Virus record (IMG/VR): IMGVR_UViG_3300010316_000005
Location: 1 to 64,000 of that record
Origin: a virus
DNA: 64,000 nucleotides
Reading direction: 5' to 3' (one strand)
Shown one piece after another: positions 2,631 through 42,756 of this stretch. Made by a program: the position numbers and the translations under genes. Under the pieces are notes generated by a model. The model made no database searches and had not been told where the DNA came from. It saw only the letters and a list, made by a program, of their open reading frames with translations. The first letter of the stretch is position 1; the number at the start of each line of letters is the position of its first letter.

Positions 2631-2659
2631 TTGACACCCGGCCCCTCTTTGTGTATACT
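2631..2659 (+). promoter_or_regulatory. sigma70 promoter upstream of the orphaned cca start
   Basis: TTGACA-17-TATACT, then GAGG RBS and ATG 2688. Confidence 0.75.
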
Positions 2660-2687
2660 GTAAGAGTAATAACAAAAGAGGTACACA

Positions 2688-2714
2688 ATGGAAAAGTTTT
2701 TAGTGCTTAGTTAA
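2688..2714 (+). pseudogene. relic 5' end of cca (MEKFLV-LS*)
   Basis: Strong promoter and RBS feed an 8-codon ORF; MEKFLV joins naturally to GGAVRD of the cca gene at 3693. Confidence 0.65.
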
Positions 2715-2732
2715 CACCCCGCTAGTTTCGGA

Positions 2733-3620
2733 TTATTTTCTACAATTTATTCCATGCCATCTGCTATAGTTGCCAGGTGATATATTTTGTTTCCCACAAT
2801 TTTCACAACACTTAAAGTTAACAGTTTTCCATTCATCACTATTTTGAGTTTCTGATAATTTTCTTGAAGCTTCTTTACCTTTGGTAAGTTTCCATTCTTT
2901 GGATTGTTTAGTGATTGACATTGATTTATATGCCTCTAGACCCACGGTTTCTAACCAAATTGGATTTGACTTTGTAGTAAGTTCCTTTTCTTTAGCAGCT
3001 TTACCTATCGTAGACTTCCATCCCAGGTCATTCTTCTTCTCAAGATCTTTCCGAACTTTTTCCTTTCCTACAGTGGCTTTCCACACAGGATCGTTTTGTA
3101 TTTCTGAAGATTGTTTTGCAACATATTTTCCTGTTGTTTCTTTCCATTCTTTACTAAGCTTTGTTTCTGAAATCTTTTTTTTGTGGTAATCTGATTTGCT
3201 TTTACCTCTTAATGCGTTAGATATACCTTCATTTTGTTCCTTAGAATTTTTTCTTCCTCTATTTCCGATGGATATTTTTCTTTTTGTTTCTTCTGAATGT
3301 GGTCCACTATTATAGAATCGTTCGTTGTGTATAGACATATTAATATACATAGGATTTTTGTGGACATTGAAATATTCTTGAAAATATATTTCCTTTAAGA
3401 TTGCCTCTTTTCGGGTTTTGTGTTTGGTTAATATTACAGTTTTAAATGATTTTCTATTTGTTCTAATTTCTCTTTTCCATATTTTAGAATATTTGTCGGA
3501 ACCAACTGATCCATGATATCCATTTTCCAAGATGTTCGATACAGAAGTGTATCCTATGTAAAATGGTGGCATTTTGTTGCCACCATAAAAAGTTATATAT
3601 GTGCAAAAAACCATTGACAT
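2733..3620 (-). CDS. free-standing GIY-YIG-like homing endonuclease with NUMOD3-like and tandem W..T.G repeats
   Basis: TYIT..FYIGYT..YHGS, HSEETKRKIS, C-terminal CENC..RWHG..C; AT-rich, antisense to neighbours. Confidence 0.75.
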   Translation of the reverse strand: MSMVFCTYITFYGGNKMPPFYIGYTSVSNILENGYHGSVGSDKYSKIWKREIRTNRKSFKTVILTKHKTRKEAILKEIYFQEYFNVHKNPMYINMSIHNERFYNSGPHSEETKRKISIGNRGRKNSKEQNEGISNALRGKSKSDYHKKKISETKLSKEWKETTGKYVAKQSSEIQNDPVWKATVGKEKVRKDLEKKNDLGWKSTIGKAAKEKELTTKSNPIWLETVGLEAYKSMSITKQSKEWKLTKGKEASRKLSETQNSDEWKTVNFKCCENCGKQNISPGNYSRWHGINCRK

Positions 3621-3651
3621 CCTTTCTAAGACAGTGTATAGTTTATTTATA
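3614..3651. promoter_or_regulatory. back-to-back promoters: + sigma70 for cca, - late-type for the HEG
   Basis: TTGACA(3614)-17-TATAGT(3637) on +; TATAAATA on - at 3644-3651. Confidence 0.7.
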
Positions 3652-3668
3652 TAGAGTAGGAGTTTTCG

Positions 3669-4901
3669 GTGGCAATATCTAAATATCTAGTAGGCGGCGC
3701 AGTACGTGATATGCTGCTGGGCCGCGAGGTTGTAGACCGCGACTTTGTTGTAGTTGGTTCAACTCCTGAAGAAATGGTTGCTACTGGCTTTGCACAAGTT
3801 GGCGCAGACTTTCCTGTGTTCCTGCATCCCGAAACTGGCGAAGAATTTGCCCTGGCACGCCGCGAGCGTAAGACAGGCGAAGGCTACCTGGGCTTTACTT
3901 CGGAGTTTGGTGTAGACGTTACGCTGGAAGAAGACCTGGCACGGCGCGACCTGACTGTAAACTCCATGGCACTGGATACTTCTGATACTTGGAAGGACAC
4001 GGTTGTTGATCCATTCGGCGGTCAAGAAGATCTGCGTAACAAAGTACTGCGGCACACTAGCAATGCGTTTGCTGAAGATCCTGTGCGTGTACTGCGGCTG
4101 GCAAGGTTCCGGGCACGACTGGGCCCAGAGTGGACTGTTGCTCCTGAAACAGTAGCACTGGTTTCGCAGATGGCCAAGAAGGGCGTACTGAAGGAACTGA
4201 CTGCTGAGCGAGTTTGGAAGGAAATGAGCCGGGCACTGATGGAGCCACATGCGCGTCTGTTTTTTGACACGCTGCTGGAAACTGATGCTCTGCATGTTGT
4301 ATTTCCTGAAGTATACAAGCTGAAGACTGCGCTGGAGGCACGCCGTTGGCACCCCGAAGGCGATGCGTTTGAACACACTATGCTGGTTCTGACTGCGGCT
4401 GTTAAGTTTGGTTACGATCTGGAAACTCGCTTTGCTGCGCTGGTACACGACTTTGGTAAGGGCCTGACGCCACGTGCGGTACTGCCCAAGCACTACGGTC
4501 ACGAATTTACTGGTGTTGCTGTTGCTGAATCGTTTGCTAACAGGCTGACTGTTCCTAGCAAGATGCGTGACCGTGCTATGAAGACTACTCGGTTCCATAT
4601 GCATATGCACAAGCTGGATACACTGAATCCAAAGACATTTGTAAAGATGTTTGAGGAGATGGGTGCGTTCAACGATCCTGCGGTAGTTGACCTGCTGGTA
4701 AGAGTAGGTGAAGCAGATGACCGCGGCAGACTGGGTAGTGAAAACGCTGATGTAGCACACCTGCAGAAGCTGAAGACACTGTTTGACGTTGCTAAGGCTG
4801 TTAGCTTTGCGGATGTATTTCCAAAGGGCGAAACAAACGGTAACAAGATCAAAGAAGGCATGCGCCGGGCGCGTGTAAAGGCAGTAGCAGAGAGCAAATA
4901 A
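3669..4901 (+). CDS. cca: multifunctional CCA-adding tRNA nucleotidyltransferase with HD domain
   Basis: YLVGGAVRD, DRDFVV, EDLARRDLTVN, EDPVRVLR, HPEGD..H, LVHDFGK. Confidence 0.95.
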   Translation: MAISKYLVGGAVRDMLLGREVVDRDFVVVGSTPEEMVATGFAQVGADFPVFLHPETGEEFALARRERKTGEGYLGFTSEFGVDVTLEEDLARRDLTVNSMALDTSDTWKDTVVDPFGGQEDLRNKVLRHTSNAFAEDPVRVLRLARFRARLGPEWTVAPETVALVSQMAKKGVLKELTAERVWKEMSRALMEPHARLFFDTLLETDALHVVFPEVYKLKTALEARRWHPEGDAFEHTMLVLTAAVKFGYDLETRFAALVHDFGKGLTPRAVLPKHYGHEFTGVAVAESFANRLTVPSKMRDRAMKTTRFHMHMHKLDTLNPKTFVKMFEEMGAFNDPAVVDLLVRVGEADDRGRLGSENADVAHLQKLKTLFDVAKAVSFADVFPKGETNGNKIKEGMRRARVKAVAESK

Positions 4902-4927
4902 TTGCTCTCTGCATTTAAGGAGAAACA

Positions 4928-5359
4928 ATGAACTACGCAGAAAATCCAATTGAAGATTTGCACAATGCTATGGCCCACGCTGAATACGAGGGCTTTAGTA
5001 ATATTCACTATGAAACCCGAGACTGGGAGTTGTATAAATCAAGTGACCGCAAAGAAGACAAACGTATCCCTAAGACACGCAGGCCTACTACAAGAGACTT
5101 TGGTGTATACGCAATGTTCCCCCAAACGTGGGGCAGCACTGCGCTAGGACACGGCGGAATGGGCGGAGCGTCAATGACCACTGCGTACACTATTGTACTA
5201 GAATGTACAAACACCGGAGAGTTTTTGGTTTACTTTGGCGGGAGTTATTGTTACACGATCAAAGGAAAAAACGATGCTTTCCTTGAAGATTGTAAAAATA
5301 GATGTCTTGCTGGGAAGCGTAAAGCAAAAACAAAATACGGAATCGTAGAGCAGGATTAA
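4928..5359 (+). CDS. conserved phage hypothetical protein (probably with a replaced C-terminus)
   Basis: AGGAG RBS; FPQTWGSTALG motif; stop shared with convergent HEG. Confidence 0.8.
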   Translation: MNYAENPIEDLHNAMAHAEYEGFSNIHYETRDWELYKSSDRKEDKRIPKTRRPTTRDFGVYAMFPQTWGSTALGHGGMGGASMTTAYTIVLECTNTGEFLVYFGGSYCYTIKGKNDAFLEDCKNRCLAGKRKAKTKYGIVEQD

Positions 5360-5368
5360 TCCTGCTCT
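5347..5368. repeat. 22-bp perfect palindrome centred on shared TTAA stops
   Basis: AGAGCAGGATTAATCCTGCTCT; both convergent ORFs end EQD*. Confidence 0.9.
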
Positions 5369-6165
5369 CTATTTTTAATATCTTCTAACAAAGAAAGTAA
5401 CTTTTCTTTTGATCCAAGATTCCACCTTCTTGGTAACTTTATATTCTTGCTTAATGCTATTTCTTTTATTTCTTCTCTTATATAGTTGAGTTTAGAATAT
5501 GTTTTTCTTTGTATTTCGCCACCTAAAAAGTGGTGGGTCCCGTTGTCGATTCTTTTCTTGTGTGTTTTTCTTTGTATTTCACCACTTGAAAAGTTATGTT
5601 TTCCTTTAGCAGACAACTCAAATTGCGTGTTGCGTTGAACATCACTATTTAAGAAATGATGTGTTCCGTCTTCTATCCTCTTGCGTTGACTTTCAATCAT
5701 CTTTTTTCTAACATCATCTCTTTGAGACGAATGCCTTCCTTCTTTTAACATTCGCTCATTCATATCTTTTCCTAAAAACGGATGAGAGCCATTTTCAATC
5801 CTTATTTTATTGTTTTTTGATTTTTCTTCGGAGTCAAGCCAATGATGTGTTCCGTCTTGGATTCTCCTTTTTGCCAAGTCGCTGGCAGTTTTTGAATCAA
5901 TGCCTTCTGCTGATTCGGGTATTAAGTTTGCCCATTCTTTGGATTCTACGATATTCCAAAGATTACTATAATACAGTCCGGTTTCTTTGATTTCTTCTTT
6001 GTTATCTGTTTCTAAAAGTAATTCTGTGCTAATATCGTCGCCGTGTGTTTTTATGTGTCGTATCCAATGTTTACCAGACCCTTTATATTCATTTGGATCA
6101 TTTTTTGTGTAGCCGAGATATTTTAATCCAGTTTTGTTGTGTGTTTTAACATATAAATAATACAT
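5356..6165 (-). CDS. Seg-like GIY-YIG homing endonuclease with G-x-H-x-F repeats
   Basis: YLYVKTHNKTGLKYLGYT..YKGSGKHW; repeats DGTHHW, NGSHPF, DGTHHF, KGKHNF, NGTHHF. Confidence 0.75.
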   Translation of the reverse strand: MYYLYVKTHNKTGLKYLGYTKNDPNEYKGSGKHWIRHIKTHGDDISTELLLETDNKEEIKETGLYYSNLWNIVESKEWANLIPESAEGIDSKTASDLAKRRIQDGTHHWLDSEEKSKNNKIRIENGSHPFLGKDMNERMLKEGRHSSQRDDVRKKMIESQRKRIEDGTHHFLNSDVQRNTQFELSAKGKHNFSSGEIQRKTHKKRIDNGTHHFLGGEIQRKTYSKLNYIREEIKEIALSKNIKLPRRWNLGSKEKLLSLLEDIKNREQD

Positions 6166-6247
6166 TGCTGTTGCTCCTTCATTTTGTTTAGCAATAGAGT
6201 AGTTGGGATGCCCGCCAAGAAATCCGTGAACTACACTTTTATTTATA
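6166..6247 (-). ncRNA. putative structured cis-regulatory leader RNA of HEG (copy 1), preceded by TATAAATA
   Basis: Shares stems and TTGGCG loop with 36887-36963, with compensatory changes. Confidence 0.6.
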
Positions 6248-6255
6248 CAAAGTTG

Positions 6256-6285
6256 TTGACAACCATTGGAGAACTGTGCTATAGT
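6256..6285 (+). promoter_or_regulatory. sigma70 promoter restarting downstream transcription
   Basis: TTGACA-18-TATAGT with TG extension. Confidence 0.55.
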
Positions 6286-6384
6286 GTAGAGAGAAAAAGT
6301 AAAAACATCAACGTGTTTGTTGAAGATTGCGCAAATCGCTGTCTAGTAAGCAAGAGAAAGAGCGAAAAGTATCATGGGAATTAA
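6268..6384 (+). pseudogene. relic 3' end of the 4928 gene
   Basis: GELCYSV..VFVEDCANRCLVSKRKSEKY aligns with GSYCYTI..AFLEDCKNRCLAGKRKAKTKY. Confidence 0.8.
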
Positions 6385-6751
6385 TGTAAACGTATATTCA
6401 TACTGGGGCGTTCGCACAAAATGGCAAGACGAATTTTATAACGAATATGACGAAGTCGAAAGTGCCGCTTCAGAAAAGTATGGGTACGGCAAGGAGCAGC
6501 CTGCTGACACTAATGTAGAACTAGTGTCAGATGGAATGAGTTGCGAATATATGGTATTCGGCGTGCAACTTTACGACAGCGGAGATTCGCGCTGGGGAGA
6601 GATGTATAACTCAAACGAAGTTGATATTTATCCTGAAAAGATGGATACACTACGGCACGAGTACATTGAGCTATTCAAACGCTTGTATCCGGACTACGTA
6701 CACCTCGTTGACGTGCCGTGGAAGCTTGTTAACTTTGTTCACTATAGCTGA
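6374..6751 (+). CDS. hypothetical phage protein
   Basis: 125-aa ORF overlapping the relic stop. Confidence 0.75.
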   Translation: MGINVNVYSYWGVRTKWQDEFYNEYDEVESAASEKYGYGKEQPADTNVELVSDGMSCEYMVFGVQLYDSGDSRWGEMYNSNEVDIYPEKMDTLRHEYIELFKRLYPDYVHLVDVPWKLVNFVHYS

Positions 6752-7158
6752 TGTTTAAGTTCCTCAAATATCGTTTCCTCGAATGGAAGTGGGAAAGAAT
6801 TCTTAAAAATAGTGGCCAGCGAACGTGGACAAACTATTTTTATCATAATGATCCTGACTTCAATGCTCGGGGACAAACTGTAGGAGAACAGCTAGTTGGT
6901 TATCCTTATATTGCAATAGTAAATCGCAGTAACCTCGAAACCAGGTTTGAACCAATGTGGGGACCAATAGAACATTGTTCGAGTATAATTAACTGGTGCA
7001 ACGCTAACTGTCGAAGAAAATATAGAGCTCACTGGGAACGTGTTATTAAAGATCACTACGATCAGTACACCCCGAACGGTATCGGTGGCACTGATGAATT
7101 GGTTTTTGGATTTAAAAACGAGAGAGATTTTATAATGTTTACATTGAAGTTTGTATGA
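6751..7158 (+). CDS. F-x-L-K-[WF] family small protein
   Basis: WC core; ends FKNERDFIMFTLKF. Confidence 0.75.
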   Translation: MFKFLKYRFLEWKWERILKNSGQRTWTNYFYHNDPDFNARGQTVGEQLVGYPYIAIVNRSNLETRFEPMWGPIEHCSSIINWCNANCRRKYRAHWERVIKDHYDQYTPNGIGGTDELVFGFKNERDFIMFTLKFV

Positions 7159-7445
7159 CCTCTGTAATTTTACCAATGAACAGTGAGTTACAAGATGAGC
7201 TATTATCAAAGATAGCAAAAGAAATGCAAGAAGAAATCGAAAAGGAATTATTGGATTTACTGGTTCGCCAAAATTTGTTTCGAGCACAAGGCTGGACTAT
7301 GGTACAAGTTAAAAACTGGAGAGAGATATCTGACGATTGGTGCAGTGCATATTTAAAATGTAATTATCAATGCTTCGGGCACTATTGGTATTTTGAAGAT
7401 GAAAGGGACGCAAACTTTTTTGCGTTAAGGTGGTCATCACAATGA
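7155..7445 (+). CDS. F-x-L-R-W family small protein
   Basis: WC core; ends FEDERDANFFALRW. Confidence 0.75.
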   Translation: MTSVILPMNSELQDELLSKIAKEMQEEIEKELLDLLVRQNLFRAQGWTMVQVKNWREISDDWCSAYLKCNYQCFGHYWYFEDERDANFFALRWSSQ

Positions 7446-7666
7446 AGATGGGACAATTTGACGAGACGCTATGGGTGTTCGAACGACACTTTTTCGAAAC
7501 TCTTCCGGACGGAATGAAGCTAAAATCTATTAACGGCGATACAGTTTTAAAATCAGACGATTTAGATCGAGATCATCGCTTTGGCTGCGTAGCATACGGA
7601 CTGACCGAAGAACTAGCAAACGAAACTGGTTACAGGAATAAATTTCTACTATGGAAAATAGAGTGA
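7442..7666 (+). CDS. hypothetical protein
   Basis: ATGA-coupled; ends FLLWKIE. Confidence 0.6.
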   Translation: MKMGQFDETLWVFERHFFETLPDGMKLKSINGDTVLKSDDLDRDHRFGCVAYGLTEELANETGYRNKFLLWKIE

Positions 7667-7863
7667 ACTATGTTTACCAACCGCATATAAAAACTTTCTT
7701 CTGGACTGGAAATTTCTATAGACAACACCAAAAAGAGATAGTACAATGGTGTAAGCAATACGGGTGTAATATGCCCAGCAAAGATCATGGCTGGGTTGAA
7801 TGCCCAGATGATAAAACCGTAACAATGTTTGTATTAAGATGGCCCTACACTTCTACAACTTAG
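7663..7863 (+). CDS. F-x-L-R-W family small protein
   Basis: GTGA-coupled start inferred; WC core; ends TMFVLRWP. Confidence 0.6.
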   Translation: MNYVYQPHIKTFFWTGNFYRQHQKEIVQWCKQYGCNMPSKDHGWVECPDDKTVTMFVLRWPYTSTT

Positions 7864-7921
7864 ACACCGGTGACCTTTTACGATCAACGACACTTGACAC
7901 TATATAAGATGGCTTTTCCAA

Positions 7922-8227
7922 ATGGCTAAAAAAGAAGTAATACTAGATCCAGAGACACTTGACAAAATTTGGCAAGATTGGCAACTGCGCGATAAAGACG
8001 AATCGCCGATGCAGGTGTCAAGCAGCGACCTCTCTCGTAGAATGATGCGATTTCGGGGGTATCAGAACGAATGGCGCGATGGTTATCGCACCAAGCCGTT
8101 TGAGGACTGGCTATGGCAAAACGGATTTAAGGTTATTCAACGAGACAAGAAGCGTTACTTAAAGTACATAGGTACTCCAGCAAAGCTTACAATGTTTCTT
8201 TTAAAATACGGAGGCGGCAATGCCTAA
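7922..8227 (+). CDS. F-x-L-K-Y family protein
   Basis: FEDWLWQNG; ends TMFLLKYG; paralog of 8220. Confidence 0.7.
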   Translation: MAKKEVILDPETLDKIWQDWQLRDKDESPMQVSSSDLSRRMMRFRGYQNEWRDGYRTKPFEDWLWQNGFKVIQRDKKRYLKYIGTPAKLTMFLLKYGGGNA

Positions 8228-8528
8228 GGGTAAAATTTATAGAGGCAATATTCTTGATATGTGTCACCACGTATGGTTAACTGAAACTGACCCCAAAATC
8301 AGGAAGCGACTTAGTGAATATAACTACACAGGAAATATTACACAGAAGTATATATTTCGTTACAGGCACCTAAGCAGAGAAGATGAGAAATCTCAAAGAT
8401 TCGAAACATGGTTGACGCAGCATGGTGTTGAGGTACTAAACGAAGGTCCTTGTGCGCCAAGGCGCGTTCGCGTAAATAACGAGAAATTTTTAACATACCT
8501 ATTCTTAAAGTTTAAAGAAAATAGTTAA
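8220..8528 (+). CDS. F-x-L-K family protein
   Basis: FETWLTQHG; ends TYLFLKF. Confidence 0.7.
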   Translation: MPKGKIYRGNILDMCHHVWLTETDPKIRKRLSEYNYTGNITQKYIFRYRHLSREDEKSQRFETWLTQHGVEVLNEGPCAPRRVRVNNEKFLTYLFLKFKENS

Positions 8529-8532
8529 TAGG

Positions 8533-8561
8533 TTGACATCTGTGTAATTTACTGTTACATT
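8533..8561 (+). promoter_or_regulatory. sigma70 promoter
   Basis: TTGACA-17-TACATT. Confidence 0.6.
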
Positions 8562-8592
8562 AAAAATAAGAAATACTTACGGAGACGAGATC

Positions 8593-9300
8593 ATGCCAGC
8601 AATCAAAGCATACAAATATGACGGACTACTTATTCCTATCGAAGAGGCTAAAGTAGCTAAGGCGTATCAGTGCCCCTGGACAGCCAAGGTCTATTCAACT
8701 AAGCGAGGATATCTCAAGCATCTAGCAGAGCTGCGCACCAATCGTATGCATCAAAAAGCAAGAAGCAAAATCCGTGTTCGCAAGCTTGAAGATTTTTGGA
8801 ACCAGCCCAGCTTCGAAAAGCTGATTGACTGGGTTGAGCTTAACTCAGAGTTCTTCTTAAAAAATGCACTCGGCAATCGAAACGAAAAACTCTTTGATAA
8901 GATTCGAGACGACTTCTGGATCAGAATCACTTACCTCAATCTTAACTGGAGTGAGAGTGTTTCAAACTCACACACTGCGCCACATACAGGCGAAACCAAT
9001 TGGGGAGGTCGCAAGCCAAATGCTCCTCGCGGTTATCCTGGTTGGGCAGGCGAAATCGAGTTTCAACTTAGTCACGACCTGCCATCGTTCTCAAGTGACT
9101 TGTTTCGAGGAACAAGAATTAATACTGGCACAGGAAGTGGTGTTGGCGAAAATCGTTTTGGATACGGCACTGAGTTCTTTGCTGATGACTGGCCTGCAAT
9201 TACTGCTCGCCGCGAAACAATGAAGAGTTGGAATGCCGTTGGCCACACTGCTAACGGAAATAAAATTCAGCTAGGTACTGCGAGGTACTTTAAGAGATGA
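8593..9300 (+). CDS. hypothetical phage protein
   Basis: GGAG RBS, 235 aa, C..H..H near N-terminus. Confidence 0.8.
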   Translation: MPAIKAYKYDGLLIPIEEAKVAKAYQCPWTAKVYSTKRGYLKHLAELRTNRMHQKARSKIRVRKLEDFWNQPSFEKLIDWVELNSEFFLKNALGNRNEKLFDKIRDDFWIRITYLNLNWSESVSNSHTAPHTGETNWGGRKPNAPRGYPGWAGEIEFQLSHDLPSFSSDLFRGTRINTGTGSGVGENRFGYGTEFFADDWPAITARRETMKSWNAVGHTANGNKIQLGTARYFKR

Positions 9301-9710
9301 GCTATAGATATAAGCCTGTGCCGCAGGTCCCTTGGCCAGCACCGAGAAAGAGAAAGAAAAAGAGACAGGAAATGAAAAAGAGACAGTTAATCCGAGAAAG
9401 TGATTACGCAAAGTTACCTACTTGGGTAACTGACTCATATAACGTTGATTTCAAACCGCTTACTAAAAGCTATTTTGAAAAACGGGCTACGTTCTTTTAC
9501 GTCAAAGGAAAGAAGTACGTAGCCGACCAATATGCGCTACACGAATACCCCAAGGATATGATTAAACGATTCACTGGTATTCATTTGTATAAAAGTCAAT
9601 ATAGAGACTGGCTGATCAAATACAATAGCGCCGGTGAATTAACTATCCGGGCCGGACTTCGTCGACCTGAATGTCGACTGGGACTTGCAACCTTCAGGAA
9701 GAAGGTATGA
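9297..9710 (+). CDS. basic hypothetical protein
   Basis: ATGA-coupled, 137 aa. Confidence 0.6.
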   Translation: MSYRYKPVPQVPWPAPRKRKKKRQEMKKRQLIRESDYAKLPTWVTDSYNVDFKPLTKSYFEKRATFFYVKGKKYVADQYALHEYPKDMIKRFTGIHLYKSQYRDWLIKYNSAGELTIRAGLRRPECRLGLATFRKKV

Positions 9711-11757: not shown

Positions 11758-11767
11758 AGGAGAAACA

Positions 11768-15640: not shown

Positions 15641-16672
15641 ATGTTTAACAATACAATACAGCGGATCGGTTTTGCGTGTAAGTACATGTACCCTGACCAA
15701 TCAATTAAGAAGCAGCTACTCGAAGAGTATCAGCGGCCTCTTAACAATCGTTCTACAACAGTTTCTTGGCTCAATCGACAGACTCGCGATGTTGCCGAAG
15801 AGCGCCTGTGGGACTTAATGCAACACAATATACAAAGTTTTGAAAACTTAGTTAGATACGTAGGATCTCTGCCACATGATTTACGAATGGTCCGCCTTGG
15901 AAGTGACGTTTTGCCTGTTTATACTCAGTCTAGTTGGAGTTATTTTTGGCGCCTTAGCGATACACAAGGGTATTGTGAACGAGCGTTCCGTCGCGTGGGT
16001 GAGATTGCACGTGAGCTTGATGTTCGCTTGTCTATGCATCCTGGCCAGTTCTGCTGTTTCGCATCTGATCGTGAAGATGTTGTCCTTCGTAGCATAGAAG
16101 AATTTGAGTACCACGTAGACGTAATACGATGGATGGGCTATGGCAAGCAATTCCAAGACTTTAAGTGTAACATTCACGTGTCAGGACGCAATGGAGTAGA
16201 GGGCGTAAAGCAAGCTTTAAAAAAAATAACACCCGAAGCGCGAAATGTTATTACTTTCGAAAATGATGAATATTCCTGCGGAGTCGATCAGTTAATTGAA
16301 CTTGCTGATCATGCTGCGTTAGTATTTGATAGCCACCATCACTTCATACATTCCGGCGAACATATGTATCCCAACGATGACCGTTATCAAAAAATATTAG
16401 AAAGTTGGAGAGGTGTTCGTCCTGCAATGCACTATTCTGCTAGCAGAGAAGAATACCTACTAGACGCAGACAAACTTCCTGTAATGGATGATTTACTAGC
16501 AGCAGGCTACAAGCGAGGGAAACTTAGAGCGCATAGTGATTATTATACCAATCACGCCCTTAGTGACCTAATATACGAGTTTTGGCAATATTCTGATATT
16601 ATGTGCGAGTCGAAGGCAAAGAACTTGTCGAGCATTCAGTTATACGAATACTTTAAACAGCAACATATGTAA
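15641..16672 (+). CDS. uvsE: UV-damage endonuclease
   Basis: RIGFACK, RLSMHPGQF, FENDE, FDSHHH, HYS, AHSD, ESKAK; promoter TTGACT-17-TATAAT at 15607-15635. Confidence 0.92.
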   Translation: MFNNTIQRIGFACKYMYPDQSIKKQLLEEYQRPLNNRSTTVSWLNRQTRDVAEERLWDLMQHNIQSFENLVRYVGSLPHDLRMVRLGSDVLPVYTQSSWSYFWRLSDTQGYCERAFRRVGEIARELDVRLSMHPGQFCCFASDREDVVLRSIEEFEYHVDVIRWMGYGKQFQDFKCNIHVSGRNGVEGVKQALKKITPEARNVITFENDEYSCGVDQLIELADHAALVFDSHHHFIHSGEHMYPNDDRYQKILESWRGVRPAMHYSASREEYLLDADKLPVMDDLLAAGYKRGKLRAHSDYYTNHALSDLIYEFWQYSDIMCESKAKNLSSIQLYEYFKQQHM

Positions 16673-17333
16673 ATCTTTTATTGCCGGCGTCATCTATATA
16701 TTGTTTTCTCTTCATTCCTTCGTATTTCTTCTTTCTAGTCTCAGCAGCCCTTTTTGAAATGTCTGATCTTTTTTCTGGAGACATATCTTTTACCCTCTGT
16801 TGTGCTGCTATTTTATAAGATTCGATGGCAGCACTAGATCTCTTTTCGCCTTTTCTTGACTCAAGCAGTTCTATCTGTTGTTTTCTATAGTCTTCGTCTT
16901 GCCACCGCGTTTTCATCGACGCAGATATGCTGTTTCTTCCTGCTAAGGTCTTTGTGTCTTTGCCCCTGTTTGAATTTCCGCTCTTGATTTTATTTTCTGG
17001 TGTATGAGTTTTTCCATAAAACCCGTTGTCAGCGCCTCTATTAACGGGGGGTCGGGCACCTTCCGTAATATTAGTCAAATTACTAATGCCTATGGTTTCT
17101 ATTAAGTGTTCTTCATAATCATATGCGAGTTGCTCGTCGACAAAATATTTTATTATTTCTACTACAGGTTCTAGTTCTTGCTTGTGTAGTTCTTTGATAA
17201 GACTGTCTTTATAATAGTTATTATTGCCATCCGTGAACTGGTTATGGGTATGTGCCCTGTTACCAGTTCCTTTGCCTATATAAAAGACAGTGTTCGAACG
17301 AGGGTCTATAAGTTGGTATACGTAGTATTTCAT
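16653..17333 (-). CDS. GIY-YIG (LEM-3-like) homing endonuclease with NUMOD3
   Basis: YYVYQLIDPR..FYIGKG..R, LTNI, FYGKTHT; tail-to-tail overlap with uvsE. Confidence 0.8.
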   Translation of the reverse strand: MKYYVYQLIDPRSNTVFYIGKGTGNRAHTHNQFTDGNNNYYKDSLIKELHKQELEPVVEIIKYFVDEQLAYDYEEHLIETIGISNLTNITEGARPPVNRGADNGFYGKTHTPENKIKSGNSNRGKDTKTLAGRNSISASMKTRWQDEDYRKQQIELLESRKGEKRSSAAIESYKIAAQQRVKDMSPEKRSDISKRAAETRKKKYEGMKRKQYIDDAGNKRFTYVAV

Positions 17334-34442: not shown

Positions 34443-34451
34443 ACTAAACAT

Positions 34452-34982: not shown

Positions 34983-35009
34983 ATATACGTATATTATAAG
35001 GAGACAGAT

Positions 35010-35865: not shown

Positions 35866-36234
35866 ATGACTAATATATTTAAAGATTCAAAGGACTTCAT
35901 GGTGGCCATTGATCAGCACGAACCTAACCAAGCACAATTTGACTTGTATGTTAAACTAATCGACGAAGAACATAGCGAACTACATGACGCAATTGAAGCA
36001 GATGATCGGGTGGAGCAGCTCGACGCTCTTGTTGACATCTTAGTTGTAACTGCCGGAGCAATCAACTCAATGGGTGCAGATGGCGAAGGCGCGTGGAACG
36101 AAGTGATGCGCACTAACTTTGCTAAGGTCGATCCAGAAACAGGCAAGGTTCGCAGACGCGAGGACGGAAAAGTTTTGAAAGGGCCTAATTGGGTTCCGCC
36201 TAATTTAGAGCCTTTCTTGTCTAAATTAAAGTAA
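35866..36234 (+). CDS. MazG/PRA-PH-like NTP pyrophosphohydrolase (probably with a replaced C-terminus)
   Basis: LIDEEHSEL..DALVDILVV..EVMRTNFAK..REDGKVLK. Confidence 0.85.
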   Translation: MTNIFKDSKDFMVAIDQHEPNQAQFDLYVKLIDEEHSELHDAIEADDRVEQLDALVDILVVTAGAINSMGADGEGAWNEVMRTNFAKVDPETGKVRRREDGKVLKGPNWVPPNLEPFLSKLK

Positions 36235-36886
36235 ATCTGTTTTTATACAATTTGTTAGGATTATACCTAACAGCCCAAAATAGTCCGCTGCGGTTTATCC
36301 CTAGCGGACTTATTTTTTCTTCAAAATTATGTCTATTGAACATTGTCCGTTCTCCAGTGTGCATGTCTAGTAGTACATAATCTTTAACAGGAATTGGTCG
36401 AATTTCGTTTCGACGCTTAACTCCTTCTGAAATCTTTTTAGAAACTTTTTTAGAGGTAGTATTACCGTAATTCCAGTGGCTTTTTCCAGTCATGCGATCT
36501 ATGTGTTGAGCCACTCTTTCTTTGTCATCTTTCCAGCCGTGTCCTTTCTTTGCTTTAGAAATGTTTGCCTTTGTTTCTTTTGACATTACCCAGCCAGCAT
36601 TGCCATCGCCGCCGTCTGTTTTATTATGTAATATGCCAGTACCGTTGTCTATGCGCCCATGCCATCTTATTAGGCGCCGTTCTAATGCTAACGCGCCTAC
36701 ATCTGTTAGATTAGATTCTAAGATGAAAATATTCGAAAAGTCTTTTTTTGGAAATATAGTTCTGTCTGATCTAGCCCATGCTCGTTTACCACATCCTTTA
36801 CCTATGTAATAAGGTGTTCCGTTATCTCTTATGTAAGCATAGACGTAAAAATCTTTAGGCAAGTTGTTTTTAGAGTAAATATTCAT
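36221..36886 (-). CDS. GIY-YIG homing endonuclease
   Basis: FYVYAYIRDNGTPYYIGKG..R, LHNKTDGGDG, SKETKANIS; tail-to-tail overlap. Confidence 0.8.
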   Translation of the reverse strand: MNIYSKNNLPKDFYVYAYIRDNGTPYYIGKGCGKRAWARSDRTIFPKKDFSNIFILESNLTDVGALALERRLIRWHGRIDNGTGILHNKTDGGDGNAGWVMSKETKANISKAKKGHGWKDDKERVAQHIDRMTGKSHWNYGNTTSKKVSKKISEGVKRRNEIRPIPVKDYVLLDMHTGERTMFNRHNFEEKISPLGINRSGLFWAVRYNPNKLYKNRFTLI

Positions 36887-36963
36887 GCTGATAGTTCCTT
36901 TTAAAATTCAACTGTTAGAGTAGTCAGGTACGCCAATACCGTGGACTACACTTATATTTATAC
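36887..36963 (-). ncRNA. putative structured cis-regulatory leader RNA of HEG (copy 2)
   Basis: TATAAATA then GTAGTC..GGTA-TTGGCG-TACC..GACTAC; homologous to 6166-6247. Confidence 0.6.
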
Positions 36964-36980
36964 AAAAGATATAAAAGAAC

Positions 36981-37043
36981 AGGGAAGATGTTCTTAAACC
37001 CGCAGACTGGAAAGCACCTGAACTAGCACCTTTCCTAAAATAA
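36981..37043 (+). pseudogene. relic 3' end of the MazG-like gene
   Basis: REDVLKPADWKAPELAPFLK* vs current REDGKVLKGPNWVPPNLEPFLSKLK*. Confidence 0.85.
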
Positions 37044-37099
37044 CCGTTGACTCCTTGTAATTTTTATGCTATAGTGTAATGAATTACAAGGAGACTTTT

Positions 37100-37636
37100 A
37101 TGGCCACACACGGCACAATCGACTTAGAGACGCTAGACGTTATTCCGACAGCAACCATACTCAGCTTAGGTGCTGTTAAATTTGATCCGTTCTCTAACGC
37201 AGAACCACATTCAGAATTATATCTTAAAATTTCAATCGACGAACAAGACGCTCTTGGTTGTACTGTCGCCGACAGTACAATCGAATGGTGGGGCAAACAA
37301 GATCCTGAAATTATGGAAGAAGCGTTTGACCAGAACGGCGCAGTGTCAGTTGAAGAAGCACTGCGTCAAGTTAGCAAATGGGCAGTGGGAGTAGATGAAT
37401 TTTGGGGACAGGGGTACGGCTTTGACTTCACAATTCTCGAAGATATGTATCGCAAAGTAGGGAAGCCTATTCCATGGCAGTTTTGGCAAGTAATGGACAG
37501 TCGTACTATTACAACGCGTATGCCACGTGATCCACGCAAAGATATGCAGACCAGCTTGCACAATGCACTTGCTGACGCATACTTTCAGGCAAAGTCAATT
37601 CAAATTATTTTTAAACATAACGGGTGGACTAAATGA
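37100..37636 (+). CDS. DEDDh 3'-5' exonuclease
   Basis: IDLETL, FDF.IL, DSRT, HNALADA; promoter TTGACT-17-TATAGT at 37047-37075. Confidence 0.85.
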   Translation: MATHGTIDLETLDVIPTATILSLGAVKFDPFSNAEPHSELYLKISIDEQDALGCTVADSTIEWWGKQDPEIMEEAFDQNGAVSVEEALRQVSKWAVGVDEFWGQGYGFDFTILEDMYRKVGKPIPWQFWQVMDSRTITTRMPRDPRKDMQTSLHNALADAYFQAKSIQIIFKHNGWTK

Positions 37637-37821
37637 ATCCTGTCAGCAGAACATTAAGCGATGAAGAACAAAAATTAATCGACGACTATATCAAAAAAGG
37701 CGGCAACGTTACACAGTGTGACAAGTATGCAGTATCTGAAGAGATTGAATATACTGGTGGGTTCTACCAAAAGCGTAAGCGTAAAAAAGAGGCAGAGGCC
37801 AAAGATGACGACAAAGGTTGA
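37633..37821 (+). CDS. small hypothetical protein
   Basis: IDDYIKKGGNVTQC. Confidence 0.65.
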   Translation: MNPVSRTLSDEEQKLIDDYIKKGGNVTQCDKYAVSEEIEYTGGFYQKRKRKKEAEAKDDDKG

Positions 37822-37987
37822 TCTAACTGATTTCAATTTAACTCCTGATGATGCAGTCAATGCTCTTTTATGGATAATTGAAAATCAAGGACCACTGGGC
37901 AAGAAGAGAAAGTTTAGCGATCTAAAAATTGTTGAGTTCGAGGATGGCCGCGAAGCAACACATTTCATACTTAGATGGAGTAAGTAA
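37805..37987 (+). CDS. F-x-L-R-W family small protein
   Basis: ends FEDGREATHFILRWS. Confidence 0.65.
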   Translation: MTTKVDLTDFNLTPDDAVNALLWIIENQGPLGKKRKFSDLKIVEFEDGREATHFILRWSK

Positions 37988-37988
37988 G

Positions 37989-38201
37989 ATGGTAAAATGG
38001 TGGGACTGGATTATTGCCTTTGTTTGGGCAGGTATAATGATGGCACTCTTAGCCAAAGGGGTTACTGCTCCTACTTGGTGGGAACCACTCTTCTACGGTT
38101 TTGTTACTGGAATGGTTTACAGATTTTGGCGTGACTACTATTGCATTTATCGACTGGCATGGGAGATTGTAAAAAATGACAAACATATTCGAAGAATGTA
38201 A
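37989..38201 (+). CDS. small membrane protein
   Basis: MVKWWDW, two hydrophobic segments. Confidence 0.55.
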   Translation: MVKWWDWIIAFVWAGIMMALLAKGVTAPTWWEPLFYGFVTGMVYRFWRDYYCIYRLAWEIVKNDKHIRRM

Positions 38202-38385
38202 GTGTCCAACTGAATACAGCATTGAGCCGCACGGAGATGGCTTTGCGCTCTATCTCGGGCGTTGTGGCCATCGACACGGGTACAATTTAATTAATATGAA
38301 AGAGCCGGCGTGGAATTTTGATGCCGAGCATCTCTCACGTTTGCTAAATATCGGCGCAGAACATTATAAAGAGGAAAATGAATGA
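38176..38385 (+). CDS. hypothetical protein
   Basis: GGAG RBS, coupled to the clamp loader. Confidence 0.6.
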   Translation: MTNIFEECKCPTEYSIEPHGDGFALYLGRCGHRHGYNLINMKEPAWNFDAEHLSRLLNIGAEHYKEENE

Positions 38386-39302
38386 AGAACTTATGGGTAG
38401 AATCATACCGTCCACACACACTAGACGGTTATGTATTTAAAGACGACTCTCAAAAAGATCAGATCAAAAGTTGGATTAAAGCAGGTACAATTCCGCATTT
38501 GCTACTAAGTGGCAGTGCAGGAATCGGCAAAACAACTATTGCTAAGATTCTGATCAATCAGCTTGATGTACAAGAGCATGATGTACTGTACGCCAACGGA
38601 TCAAAAGAGGGTAGAAAGATTGAATGGGTCGACAAGCTGATTATGTTCTGTCAGACTATGCCGTTTGGCGATTATAAGATTGTGCTCATTGACGAAGCTG
38701 ACTATATGAACTTGCACTCTGTACAGCCTGCGTTGCGCAACTTGATGGAAGAGTACAGCTCTAGCGTAAGGTTTATTCTAACGTGCAACTATCCAAACAA
38801 GCTCATGCCAGCTATTCATAGTAGATGTCAGCATATGCACTTTGAAAAGATTGACAAGACAGAGTTTACTGCTCGTGTTGCAGAAATTCTTATCACTGAA
38901 GGTGTTGAGTTTAAACTCGATGTCCTCGACAGCTACGTTAAAGCGTACTACCCAGACCTAAGAAAAGCAATCAATACTGTACAGCTAAACAGCCAAACTA
39001 ACACATTGGTTAGTGCAGCAGCAAGTGGGAACAGCGCAGACTATCATCTACAGATGGTTGATTTATTTAAAGCAGGCAAAGTCGCCGAAGCAAGAAAACT
39101 AATTTGTTCGCAAGTACAGCCGGAAGAGATTGACGAAATCTATCGTTGGTTATATACTAACATTGACTTGTTTGGCGACACTGAAGACCAACAAGATGAT
39201 GCTGTCCTAATTATTAAACAGGGCATTGTCGATCACGCACTAGTAGCTGATCCAGAGATCAACCTAAGTGCAACACTTATTCAGCTAGGAAGAATAAAAT
39301 GA
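38382..39302 (+). CDS. clamp loader AAA+ subunit (gp44/RFC-small-like)
   Basis: LWVESYRP, GSAGIGKTT, IDEAD, FILTCNY, SRC. Confidence 0.92.
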   Translation: MKNLWVESYRPHTLDGYVFKDDSQKDQIKSWIKAGTIPHLLLSGSAGIGKTTIAKILINQLDVQEHDVLYANGSKEGRKIEWVDKLIMFCQTMPFGDYKIVLIDEADYMNLHSVQPALRNLMEEYSSSVRFILTCNYPNKLMPAIHSRCQHMHFEKIDKTEFTARVAEILITEGVEFKLDVLDSYVKAYYPDLRKAINTVQLNSQTNTLVSAAASGNSADYHLQMVDLFKAGKVAEARKLICSQVQPEEIDEIYRWLYTNIDLFGDTEDQQDDAVLIIKQGIVDHALVADPEINLSATLIQLGRIK

Positions 39303-39559
39303 GCAGGCGGCAGCGACTACTAAAGCAACATATGGTTTCGGTATCTATGCAAGCGTTGTATATGGTATTGGCAATTGTAACTGCTGGTGTCGCTGCTTTT
39401 TCGATGTACGCAGGATCTGCTTTGATATTTATATTTTATGTCGCAGCGATGGTAGTCGGCGCTGGCGGCATAGTGTTTCAAATTTGGGGAAGTGTAATTC
39501 TCAAAGAACACGCACAGGACTACACTTTAAACAGTTTAAAAGGAGATTACGATGAGTAG
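39299..39559 (+). CDS. 2-TM membrane protein
   Basis: hydrophobic; ends NSLKGD. Confidence 0.65.
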   Translation: MSRRQRLLKQHMVSVSMQALYMVLAIVTAGVAAFSMYAGSALIFIFYVAAMVVGAGGIVFQIWGSVILKEHAQDYTLNSLKGDYDE

Positions 39560-39830
39560 AGTTTGGAGGAGAGTTTTCAAGAAACTAGGAAAGGGCCTGT
39601 GGATTTTTAGTAAATTTTTTGCCGGTTGGGCAGCAGGATGCGCAGTAACAATTGGGGCACTTTACTTAGTTGGTGTTCGAAACCCGGACGCACTGTATAC
39701 TATCGGATCACTTACTCCGATTATTATTGGTTTCGTATACATCATTGTTAAAGAAATGTACACTGACGCAAGGGACGAAGTAGAGCGCGAAAATCGCCGG
39801 ATGATGAATAGCATTAGTGGAAAATATTAA
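39552..39830 (+). CDS. 2-TM membrane protein, paralog of 40187
   Basis: MSRVW..EVERENRRMMNSI. Confidence 0.7.
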   Translation: MSRVWRRVFKKLGKGLWIFSKFFAGWAAGCAVTIGALYLVGVRNPDALYTIGSLTPIIIGFVYIIVKEMYTDARDEVERENRRMMNSISGKY

Positions 39831-40184
39831 ATGACCTACCTAGTAACTGACAACTGCATACGCTGTAAACACATGGACTGTGTAGCAGTATGTCCAGTAG
39901 ATTGCTTTTACGAAGGCGAAAATATGTTAGTCATTGACCCCGTTGAATGTATCGACTGCGGTGTGTGCGAACCCGAATGTCCTGTTAACGCTATTGTTCC
40001 TGACAATGAGTTAAAAGGCGATAACTTGGCTAAATGGCTGAAGATTAATACCGACTACGCAGCAGAATGGCCTAACATTACACAAGTACGAGAAGAGGAT
40101 CGACCTGCTGATAGAGAAGAGTGGGACGGCGTTCCGAACAAGTATGAAGATCACTTTTCAACAGAACCCGGACAGGGAGACTAA
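39831..40184 (+). CDS. fdxA: 7Fe ferredoxin
   Basis: [38 protein letters not shown]. Confidence 0.92.
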
Positions 40185-40186
40185 CG

Positions 40187-40495
40187 ATGAAACGAGTATG
40201 GATGAAGTTTTTACAGAAGGCCGGAGCAAGTTTATGGAAGACATTTTTACCTGTATTAGGAACGTTATTTGTAGTAGCAATATATCTTGGATTGGCGGTT
40301 GGGATTTCTTTTAGCTTACAGTTTGTTTTCCCCGGAGGACCAATTGGCTTTTTTCTATTAATTAGTTTGGCGCTACCTATGATAACCGGAATGGCAATAT
40401 ACAACGGGCGCAAGTTATATGCCGAGGCGAAAAAAGAAGTCGAGCGTGAAAATAAAAGAATGATGGCTAGTATAAAAGGCGATACTTATGATTAG
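40187..40495 (+). CDS. 2-TM membrane protein, paralog of 39552
   Basis: MKRVW..EVERENKRMMASIKGD. Confidence 0.7.
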   Translation: MKRVWMKFLQKAGASLWKTFLPVLGTLFVVAIYLGLAVGISFSLQFVFPGGPIGFFLLISLALPMITGMAIYNGRKLYAEAKKEVERENKRMMASIKGDTYD

Positions 40496-40970
40496 AGCTA
40501 TACTCGCGTGTGACGATAATTGGGGGATCGGGAAGAACAATGATCTTCCTTGGCCGCACAATCCTGCTGACTTAAAATGGTTTAAAGAATCAACTGATGG
40601 CGGAGTTGTGGTTATGGGCAGGAACACTTGGGATAGCTTGCCTAAGCAGCCGTTGCCCAACAGACGCAATGTTATATTGTCATCGTCGATAGGCAAAATA
40701 CGATCACCATTTATAGAAGTTATTAAACCCGACATCTTTGGCTCTAGAATAAATGTACTCGAGCAGGAAGATGCACCAGTTTGGTTTATTGGCGGAGCAC
40801 ATCTTATTAATAGTTATCTTAGAATCATAGATGAAATCTGGCTCAGTCGAATTGCTGGCAACTATAACTGTGATGTTTTTCTGCCCCGTACGGCAATTGA
40901 GCTTGCCTACGAGTTACAGAGTAGCGAAAGCAATAACGGAGTTCATATAGAAAAATGGGTAAAAGTATAA
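40488..40970 (+). CDS. folA: dihydrofolate reductase
   Basis: IGKNNDLPW..DLKWFK..VVMGRNTWDSL..PLPNR..IGG. Confidence 0.95.
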   Translation: MIRAILACDDNWGIGKNNDLPWPHNPADLKWFKESTDGGVVVMGRNTWDSLPKQPLPNRRNVILSSSIGKIRSPFIEVIKPDIFGSRINVLEQEDAPVWFIGGAHLINSYLRIIDEIWLSRIAGNYNCDVFLPRTAIELAYELQSSESNNGVHIEKWVKV

Positions 40971-40983
40971 AAAAAGGAATAAA

Positions 40984-41850
40984 ATGAAAGAATATTTAGA
41001 CGCACTAGAATTTATATTAACTAACGGTAAAGACCGTGGCGACAGAACAGGAACCGGTACACGCGGAGTATTTGGATATCAAATGCGTTTCAACTTGCGT
41101 AAAGAATTCCCAGCAGTAACTACAAAGAAGCTAGCGTGGAAGTCAGTAGTCGGAGAGCTACTTTGGATGTTAGAAGGCAGCTCAGACGAGCGCAGGCTTG
41201 CAGAGATTACATTCGAAAAGCCACGTGAAGAATTAATCGGCAAGAATACCATTTGGACTGCTAATGCCGACAAGCAAGCCAAGGACCTTGGTTATGTTAA
41301 TACCGACACCGAAAAAGATCTTGGTCCTGTTTACGGACATCAATGGCGTAGTTGGGATGCACAACTTGGCTTTGTAGATCAAATTGCAGAAGTACTGGAT
41401 CAAATGTATTACGATCCGAACAGTCGCAGACATATTGTTAGTGCGTGGAACCCTGATAAAGTGGGCGTAATGGCATTGCCGCCTTGTCATGCAATGTTTC
41501 AATTTCACATACAAGACGGTGAACTAAGTTGTCAACTGTATCAAAGGTCAGTTGATGCACCACTTGGTTTGCCATTTAATATTGCTAGTTACAGTTTGTT
41601 AACACATATGTTTGCCCAATTACTCGGGTTAAAGGTTGGTGAATTTATCCATACCTCTGGCGATTTACACATCTATCAGAATCAAATAGAAAGAGTAAAA
41701 GAACAGCTTACAAGAGAACCTCTTCCAGGGCCGACGTTAGAAATGCCTAAATTTTCAAATTTAGACGAGTTAATAAAAACAACACCGAGTCAATATAAGT
41801 TGATAAATTATCAACATCACCCTGAAATTAAGATACCGTTTGCTGTATAG
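40984..41850 (+). CDS. thyA: thymidylate synthase
   Basis: DRTGTGT, LGPVYG.QW, LPPCH, YQRSVD..LGLPFN, GDLHIY. Confidence 0.97.
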   Translation: MKEYLDALEFILTNGKDRGDRTGTGTRGVFGYQMRFNLRKEFPAVTTKKLAWKSVVGELLWMLEGSSDERRLAEITFEKPREELIGKNTIWTANADKQAKDLGYVNTDTEKDLGPVYGHQWRSWDAQLGFVDQIAEVLDQMYYDPNSRRHIVSAWNPDKVGVMALPPCHAMFQFHIQDGELSCQLYQRSVDAPLGLPFNIASYSLLTHMFAQLLGLKVGEFIHTSGDLHIYQNQIERVKEQLTREPLPGPTLEMPKFSNLDELIKTTPSQYKLINYQHHPEIKIPFAV

Positions 41851-41856
41851 TTTTTC

Positions 41857-41895
41857 TTGCTGTTCCTTTCAATAAGATAAAGAAAGGAACAGCAA
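41857..41895 (+). promoter_or_regulatory. RBS-sequestering hairpin of HEG
   Basis: Perfect 14-bp IR TTGCTGTTCCTTTC / GAAAGGAACAGCAA covering the SD and the A of ATG. Confidence 0.8.
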
Positions 41896-42704
41896 TGCAA
41901 GGAATATATTATATAGAAAATACTAAAACTCAGCGTAGATATTATGGGAGTTCATTTGATATAGTAAAAAGACTAACGCAACACCGACAAGACTTAGAAA
42001 AAGGAAAACATCATAATATACAACTACAAAGAACTTATAACAAGCATGGAAACATATTTCGTTATGTAACGTTAAAAGAGACTAATTTTAATACTCGAGA
42101 AGAACTATTAGAATATGAACAGACATTTTTAGATAAAAACATCAATGGCTATAACATGGCACCCGCAAACGGCGGCAATATCCTAGGGGCACATCCAAAT
42201 AAAGATCAAATTAGAGAAAAAATTATAAAAACTCATAGTGACACTTTGAAAAGTATGAGCATTGAAGAAAAAAAGAAAAAATTTGGTCGTCCTAAAACTA
42301 AAAATGGAAACTGGAAACAAGGAGCAACTGTTAACATTTGTCCTAACTGCAATAGTTCAATGGGGTATTATGCAAAAACTTGCGGAGAATGCAGAGACAG
42401 AACAAAAGATAATAATCCGTTTTATAGAAAGTCGCACACTGATAAAACTAAATCTATTTTAAGAGAAAAACTGTCAGGCGAAAATTCGTGGATTAAAAAC
42501 ATTGATCCTAGTGAATTGCCTTATACAAAACAATATGTAATAGAATATCCCACCGGATTCTTAAAAGAAGTATATGGCCTAAAAACTATAGCAGAAGAAT
42601 TTAATACAAGTATAGCAAATTTACACGCAACAATAAATCGTATGAGACAAGGAAAAATTCCAACAAGGGGAACTTTTAAAGGAATGAATATCTATGAAAA
42701 ATAA
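41895..42704 (+). CDS. GIY-YIG homing endonuclease (Zn finger, NUMOD3)
   Basis: GIYYI..YYGSS..R..H, GYN, CPNC..CGEC, NPFYRKSHT. Confidence 0.88.
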   Translation: MQGIYYIENTKTQRRYYGSSFDIVKRLTQHRQDLEKGKHHNIQLQRTYNKHGNIFRYVTLKETNFNTREELLEYEQTFLDKNINGYNMAPANGGNILGAHPNKDQIREKIIKTHSDTLKSMSIEEKKKKFGRPKTKNGNWKQGATVNICPNCNSSMGYYAKTCGECRDRTKDNNPFYRKSHTDKTKSILREKLSGENSWIKNIDPSELPYTKQYVIEYPTGFLKEVYGLKTIAEEFNTSIANLHATINRMRQGKIPTRGTFKGMNIYEK

Positions 42705-42756
42705 ATTAATTGGGTATATCCCAATGGATAGCATAAAGGCGCCAATGGCAGTATGA
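42694..42756 (+). pseudogene. relic 3' end of thyA
   Basis: KLIGYIPMDSIKAPMAV* vs current KLINYQHHPEIKIPFAV*; TGA overlaps ATG 42753. Confidence 0.85.

Follow-up and report, generated by a model that had tools for sequence, protein, structure and literature searches.

We analysed the first 64 kb (the window) of the IMG/VR virus record IMGVR_UViG_3300010316_000005, which comprises 175,736 bases and is estimated to be about half complete. In this window four host genes, cca, gene 4928, a gene for a MazG-like pyrophosphohydrolase and thyA, are each accompanied by a free-standing homing endonuclease gene (HEG), numbered HEG1 to HEG4 in that order, which lies between the terminus that the host gene uses and a short orphan copy of the same terminus. 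At all four sites the host gene is complete, with the proximal terminus copy in frame with it. The HEG stands before or after the gene and the second terminus copy is found on the far side of the HEG (Table 1). Because of its dhfr-thyA-phoH synteny, a clamp-loader gene, cca and TATAAATA motifs, which correspond to the T4 late-promoter consensus, we take the window to derive from a T4-like phage.

Table 1. Features of the four sites, with positions counted from the first base of the window (RBS, ribosome binding site; MFE, minimum free energy; aa, amino acids).
Feature	Coordinates	Strand	Details
Orphan cca start	2631..2714	+	promoter-like site, RBS, ATG, six cca-like codons, two codons, stop
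Promoter-like site of orphan cca	-35 2631-2636, -10 2654-2659	+	17-nt spacer
RBS of orphan cca, AAAGAGG	2675-2681	+	
HEG1	2733..3620	-	295 aa, antisense to cca; PHROG 10820 E 1e-20, PHROG 314 E 7e-18
Putative cassette-borne control region and substitute cca start	3614..3692		promoter-like site, TATAAATA, AGGAG, GTG, first 8 codons
Second cca promoter-like site	3614-3619 / 3637-3642	+	
TATAAATA for HEG1	3644-3651	-	
AGGAG, then cca start GTG	3658-3662; GTG 3669	+	
cca	3669..4901	+	tRNA nucleotidyltransferase, hybrid with substituted N-terminus; Pfam PolyA_pol, PolyA_pol_RNAbd, HD
Gene 4928	4928..5359	+	143 aa; last ~40 codons (5240-5359) are the substituted C-terminus
HEG2	5356..6165	-	269 aa, convergent with gene 4928, overlaps its stop; PHROG 12324 'intron-like DNA endonuclease' E 2e-13
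TATAAATA upstream of HEG2	6240..6247	-	followed by leader common to HEG3
Orphan C-terminus of gene 4928	6268..6384	+	38 codons; stop overlaps ATG 6374 of next gene
MazG-like pyrophosphohydrolase gene	35866..36234	+	Pfam PRA-PH; last ~26 codons (36154-36234) are the substituted C-terminus
HEG3	36221..36886	-	221 aa; Pfam NUMOD3 E 2e-7; PHROG 15526 and 314
TATAAATA upstream of HEG3	36955..36962	-	
Orphan MazG C-terminus (36975-37043) and promoter-like site	36975..37075	+	abuts next gene's promoter
Promoter-like site of next gene after MazG orphan	-35 37047-37052, -10 37070-37075	+	
thyA	40984..41850	+	Pfam Thymidylat_synt E 4e-97; last 17 codons (41797-41850) are the substituted C-terminus
14-bp hairpin	41857..41895	+	buries HEG4 RBS, reaches its ATG; MFE -21.1 kcal/mol, z -5.8
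HEG4	41895..42704	+	269 aa, free-standing I-TevI homologue; Pfam GIY-YIG PF01541
Orphan thyA C-terminus	42703..42756	+	17 codons and stop; overlaps HEG4 stop and ATG 42753

A first-pass annotation, made from the letters of the window, had described a HEG flanked by two diverged versions of one gene end at four loci, and we could read this arrangement in the sequence at each of them. When the two flanks of each HEG were aligned with one another as proteins, the local alignment scores were 91 for gene 4928, 52 for MazG and 36 for thyA, against a mean of 28 (standard deviation 8, 95th percentile 37) for 400 random pseudo-inserts placed in the same genome. The flank test needs a longer segment than the cca orphan offers, and this case leans on a relative, L195, described below. 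The paired terminus copies share 51-57% of their bases and are therefore no target-site duplications, in agreement with the annotation, which had described them as alike in protein and diverged in DNA.

HEG1 to HEG4 each match PHROG endonuclease families. The annotation had called all four GIY-YIG genes. The assignment stood for HEG4, the only one to pass the Pfam GIY-YIG threshold (27.3 bits vs a cut-off of 22.6); HEG1 and HEG3 remained below it (E 0.23 and 0.29) and HEG2, which has 952 homologues, some of them with NUMOD3, gave no match. In these three the motifs are visible only by eye. Comparison with the PDB returned the I-TevI catalytic domain (1mk0, E 4e-17) and the I-TevI DNA-binding domain (1i3j, E 1.3e-8, residues 129-203) for HEG4, and no match for HEG1, HEG2 or HEG3. 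HEG4 is a homologue of I-TevI in the catalytic domain, the zinc finger and the DNA-binding region, although its Pfam I-TevI_ZnF match falls below the cut-off.

The thyA (td) gene of T4 carries a group I intron with I-TevI. The homology of HEG4 to this intron-encoded enzyme would fit an arrangement in which the HEG regions are spliced out, or bypassed in translation, and the orphan ends are the real ends of the genes. We consider this extremely improbable. Rfam searches of the window returned no family at gathering score, no intron family matched the four sites when the limit was relaxed to E 1, and the HEGs are separate open reading frames (ORFs) outside any detected intron or intein. Moreover, the reading frame of each host gene already runs through a terminus to a stop ahead of the HEG, three of the HEGs are antisense to the host gene, and a related thyA locus (L018) retains both ends ~120 nt apart with no element between them.

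To place the two copies relative to alleles without a HEG, we compared each site with its relatives. No close DNA relative of the window was found in the public phage collection, whose cca proteins reached at most ~46% identity among the matches listed. Many relatives at 60-85% protein identity were present in IMG/VR and in metagenomes, and they included loci that lack the HEG at cca, MazG and gene 4928. The first-pass annotation had predicted that relatives without a HEG would run directly into the orphan end, and this is what they do at all four sites, at MazG as judged by genomic context and not by overall identity. For thyA, we used 80 related loci with the dhfr-thyA...phoH order. In about 75 of them thyA is not followed by a HEG and has the canonical ...IKAPMAV end, with a stop that often overlaps the next ATG as the orphan does. 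Identity to 43 distinct HEG-less ends was 74% for the orphan and 50% for the current end, and the orphan was the better match in 39 of the 43. The orphan thyA end had been correctly placed after HEG4; it is longer than had been noted, 17 codons rather than 7, and reaches the HEG4 stop. At gene 4928, ten HEG-less relatives were available, and the orphan fits the six closer ones in length and sequence. These six are 53-63% identical to the orphan vs 39-51% to the current end, and the orphan was better in all six. Relative to these proteins, the current end of gene 4928 has a 2-residue deletion and a 5-residue extension.

At the cca site, ATG 2688 opens an 8-codon ORF whose codons 1-6 read MEKFLV. 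All IMG/VR relatives of cca start with M-x-x-Y/F-L-V ahead of GGAVRD, as the orphan does, and they share with it six residues before GG, vs eight in the current start, which uses GTG. In the metagenome scan we found a HEG-less cca (L195), 80% identical as a protein, whose first six codons are those of the orphan (17 of 18 bases identical) and lead without a gap into the GGAVRD codons. This locus is the empty allele that the first-pass annotation had predicted. At L010, cca is preceded by a distant HEG1-like gene in antisense orientation, with no recognisable orphan start, and no search was aimed at close relatives of HEG1. At another locus (L008, 4258-4716), cca is broken after about residue 86 by ~460 nt, which could be an intron or another insert.

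HEG3 is absent at all 80 related MazG loci. In four syntenic HEG-less loci (L101, L141, L148 and L154) the MazG stop abuts the same TTGACTCC promoter and exonuclease gene as the orphan does in the window, and L148, the closest syntenic relative, fits the orphan far better by eye. The MazG gene currently has an atypical end, whose last 4 codons extend into the 3' end of the antisense HEG3 (an overlap of 14 nt). With regard to the start of the exonuclease gene (37079-37110), ATG 37079 is only 3 nt past the -10 hexamer, and AAGGAG with a second ATG at ~37100 is the likelier start.

These comparisons indicate that the orphan is the native copy, being closer to HEG-less relatives at cca, thyA and gene 4928 and sharing their context at MazG. 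They also bear on the possibility that insertion of the HEG created a local duplicate of the gene end and that the two copies diverged later, with nothing imported. The copies lie side by side and point the same way, as such a duplication would leave them. However, it is the untranslated copy that retains the canonical sequence, length and next-gene junction of the family, while the translated copy, the one under selection, is aberrant, and the aberrant thyA end is common to other HEG-carrying phages. We therefore regard duplication in place as very improbable.

The thyA loci show how the used terminus and the HEG are linked. The unusual ...IKIPFAV-type end was found only in the window and at a few loci (L018/L090, L020-L023 and L192), where it either adjoins HEG4 relatives (L020-L023, L192) or stands with an orphan and no HEG (L018). 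A full HEG4 homologue, 86% identical, is present at L023; L020-L022 carry HEG4 with an internal deletion, and L020 has its own orphan immediately after the HEG stop; L018 and L090 have the unusual end and no HEG. At L018 (2373-2552), the HEG-type thyA end is followed by a diverged spacer of ~120 nt, a canonical orphan end and nrdA, an arrangement that looks like the scar of a lost HEG. The orphans of L020 and L018 differ from that of the window, as expected, since each would be the native end of its own lineage. The same site is thus seen with the HEG full, decayed, lost or never present, a series that looks like invasion, decay and loss of a HEG leaving behind a hybrid gene and an orphan. L192 has a HEG4 homologue, 58% identical, after a thyA with an aberrant end. 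A chimeric endonuclease at L193 (1743-2315), with an HNH domain fused to a HEG4-type DNA-binding region, directly follows a thyA that keeps the canonical end, with no orphan visible. Because a HEG4-type DNA-binding region stands after thyA at both L192 and L193, the DNA-binding module stays tied to the thyA end.

A gradient of identity along thyA points in the same direction. Over the last ~350 nt the window is 80-93% identical in bases to HEG-carrying loci, vs 52-78% to HEG-less loci, and in the 5' two-thirds of the gene the identity to HEG-carrying loci is not above that to HEG-less loci. These ~350 nt look co-converted, and the left boundary of the transferred segment is not fixed. The window, L020 and L023 have almost the same sequence from the substitute thyA end through the spacer hairpin to the start of the HEG, a stretch that has been kept as one unit. 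Hence the proposal that the same HEG travels with the same terminus was borne out for thyA/HEG4, the pair that this comparison of co-travel and foreign origin covers, and the proximal copy of the thyA end is foreign and linked to the HEG.

The HEGs are associated with control signals of their own. TATAAATA has four minus-strand matches in the 64-kb window, and three of these precede the three antisense HEGs by 24-75 nt. At the cca site, the antisense HEG1, a compact divergent control region and the new cca start follow one another, and the control region combines the minus-strand TATAAATA for the HEG with a plus-strand -35/-10 pair for cca. The HEG2 and HEG3 proteins are unrelated and their genes have a leader in common (6166-6250 and 36887-36965, minus strand), made up of TATAAATA and, after it, a conserved stem whose tip varies; its folding energies were not better than those of shuffled controls. 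The leader homology stops a few bases beyond TATAAATA, just ahead of each orphan, and this marks the right-hand boundary of the cassette. At the fourth site, the loop of the hairpin between thyA and HEG4 contains a late-promoter-like GATAAA motif.

Our preferred interpretation, to which we assign a probability of about 0.8, is that each site is a mobile cassette inside the host gene that combines a HEG, with the late promoter and leader belonging to it, and a substitute terminus, at a position between a few codons and ~40 codons from the end of that gene. The most likely route of homing would be double-strand-break repair. A late-expressed endonuclease would recognise and cut the HEG-less allele near the end of the gene, and the break would be repaired from the HEG-carrying genome, the gene body acting as one homology arm and the native terminus with the sequence beyond it as the other. 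The recipient would gain an intact hybrid gene whose reading frame continues into the imported terminus, with a product that would presumably be active, while the native terminus would be displaced beyond the HEG and no longer translated. By completing the reading frame and destroying the target, the imported terminus would yield an allele that is no longer cut, and neither RNA nor protein splicing would be necessary. The hybrid allele should escape cutting because the imported terminus differs at about half its bases and because the insertion splits the original sequence. Since the substituted end of cca is the N-terminus, the cassette at this site would also supply a promoter, an RBS and a start codon.

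Several observations weigh against this interpretation. Enzyme activity, cut site and homing are deduced from sequence and not from an observed event. At cca, the sequence of L195 extends no more than 40 nt before the start codon, and the syntenic relatives closest to the window have no cca at the locus. At MazG, overall identity does not separate the two copies (51% to 49 relatives for the orphan vs 52% for the current end, the orphan being better in 13 of the 49), so that this case leans on the promoter junction and the closest syntenic relatives. IMG/VR scans confirmed no relatives of HEG2 or HEG3 with usable context, and for this reason co-travel of HEG and terminus is evidenced at thyA alone. 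Near-identical contigs from other samples keep HEG1 to HEG4 at the same places, with the HEG intact in 10 contigs for HEG2, 6 for the HEG3 region and 17, from at least 8 samples, for the HEG4 region. As all 17 of the latter have HEG4, an empty site within the species is not visible. Finally, orphans are undetectable at L192 and L193, where relatives of HEG4 follow thyA, and an orphan is therefore not obligatory.

The absence of an orphan at L192 and L193 would be readily accommodated if orphans were accidental scars, left when a HEG first crossed between diverged phages and the break was healed by homologous recombination towards the gene body and by illegitimate joining at the far end. Part of the recipient's own terminus would then be left over, without a defined cassette, a role for the orphan or any strategy. 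The variable length of the thyA orphan among lineages (13, 17 and at least 19 codons) and a left boundary that is a gradient and not a fixed point also agree with such accidents. On the other hand, the orphan starts 0-15 nt from the HEG4 stop in both the window and L020, whose thyA bodies are ~77% identical in DNA, which indicates that the donor-side junction is conserved. In addition, conservation extends as a single block over the thyA terminus, the hairpin and the beginning of the HEG, and six sites in one genome, including two described below, would need many independent accidents. We consider accidental scarring unlikely, though less so at cca, gene 4928 and MazG than at thyA; it overlaps in part with the mobile-cassette interpretation and departs from it only on the reuse of the unit.

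Two more putative cases of terminus replacement, both N-terminal, were confirmed as arrangements by reading the sequence of the same record beyond the window. At record positions 73931-73954, a seven-codon orphan start (MNTYILV) and a stop overlap the stop of the upstream gene, and a minus-strand NUMOD3-like HEG remnant (74097-74357) is followed by an RNase H/flap-endonuclease-like gene that starts MNKTYII. This locus appears to be a fifth site of terminus replacement, with the N-terminus as the replaced end. Further along (157375-157935) lies a HEG3 paralogue, 42% identical, that starts MSWKK, and the gene whose ATG overlaps its stop also starts MSWKK, in different codons. Here, the HEG3 paralogue seems to have taken over the native start, with the cassette supplying a new one.

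Other HEGs of the window did not qualify. The HEG at 16653-17333 (minus strand) has a Pfam LEM-3-like GIY-YIG domain (E 5e-10) and overlaps the 3' end of gene 15641-16672; its flank score was 27, with no convincing orphan. The HEG at 45857-46393 (plus strand) is a shortened HEG2 paralogue, 49% identical, whose apparently lost C-terminal part lies in another frame, and it was rejected because its flank alignment, with a score of 41, crosses a stop inside the next gene. Elsewhere in the record (95821-96438, minus strand), an ORF opens with an intein-like C-terminal block ending ...VVHN, then C, and adjoins an endonuclease-like ORF (96435-97244).

The closest known counterparts of this architecture are the mobile endonuclease ORFs (mORFs) of fungal mitochondria. 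These 'gene hybrids' were first seen in atp6 of Allomyces macrogynus and later in atp6, atp9, cox2 and nad3 of Glomus (PMC3630166, which cites Paquin et al. 1994). In them, a LAGLIDADG or GIY-YIG ORF lies near the 3' end of a gene with a foreign C-terminus in frame before it, and the native C-terminus, which resembles that of close relatives, persists downstream as a duplicate, with no intron involved (PMC3630166). As in the window, the endonuclease ORF thus stands between two diverged terminus copies of which the orphan is the native one. The first-pass annotation had suggested a general strategy from its four cases. The strategy is not new to biology, as the fungal elements do likewise (PMC3630166). 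Unlike the mORFs, the elements described here reside in a bacteriophage genome, several HEG families are involved within one genome, and the N-terminal version carries a promoter, an RBS and a start codon. Furthermore, the phage endonuclease is a separate gene, often antisense and with its own late promoter, whereas the fungal one is fused in phase.

Among the homing systems of T4-like phages, the I-TevI/td intron of T4 is related through HEG4, which is homologous to I-TevI and shares with it the host gene thyA/td. T4 delays the translation of I-TevI, and the hairpin at the HEG4 RBS, with a late-promoter-like motif in its loop, recalls this. In contrast to the td system, there is no intron; the HEG4 element lies at the 3' end of thyA and a substitute C-terminus replaces RNA splicing. 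T4 mobA lies between genes 39 and 60. Like it, and like mobE in nrdA of phage Aeh1, a case of 'genes in pieces' (Friedrich et al. 2007, as cited in PMC2988022), the HEGs of the window are intron-less and free-standing inside an essential gene that would still function. In those two cases both halves are translated and assemble as subunits, whereas here the short piece is discarded and an imported copy substituted. Intronless homing in T4-like phages is otherwise represented by the free-standing seg/mob endonucleases, such as SegF, SegG, SegB and MobE (PMC2988022). These GIY-YIG or HNH genes also lie between or beside phage genes, are expressed late, cut in the HEG-less allele of a neighbour with co-conversion of the flanks, and can carry promoters for downstream genes (PMC2988022). 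They are described as intergenic inserts, unlike the present insertions, which lie inside coding sequence and leave a displaced terminus. The T4 review (PMC2988022) describes no orphan gene ends and contains no word beginning 'duplicat', and in the phage literature, with subscription journals outside the search, we found no description of duplicated gene termini around a HEG. The N-terminal form with its own promoter appears to be new, and this form and the visible series of HEG invasion, decay and loss are the fresh elements of the present work.

With some hesitation, we propose that terminus replacement might be widespread as a third means, next to introns and inteins, by which HEGs occupy conserved coding sequence of phages. 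The occurrence of the same solution in phages and in fungal mitochondria suggests that it emerges readily wherever HEGs move between diverged genomes. If terminus replacement is such a third means, subsequent homing would use the displaced orphan as a homology arm, the imported terminus would protect its carrier from self-cleavage, and N-terminal cassettes would bring promoters that rewire expression of the host gene. The hybrid gene and the orphan would outlast decay of the HEG as datable scars of invasion, as L018 suggests. These sites show how selfish endonucleases may settle inside essential phage genes without splicing machinery, and they may account for some of the 'odd' gene termini and short unannotated ORFs of phage genomes. 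In annotation, diverged copies of the same gene end on the two sides of a HEG provide a simple signature. Because the orphans would record the allele that preceded invasion, they indicate the likely target region of each uncharacterised endonuclease, and such regions could aid the discovery of new site-specific nucleases.

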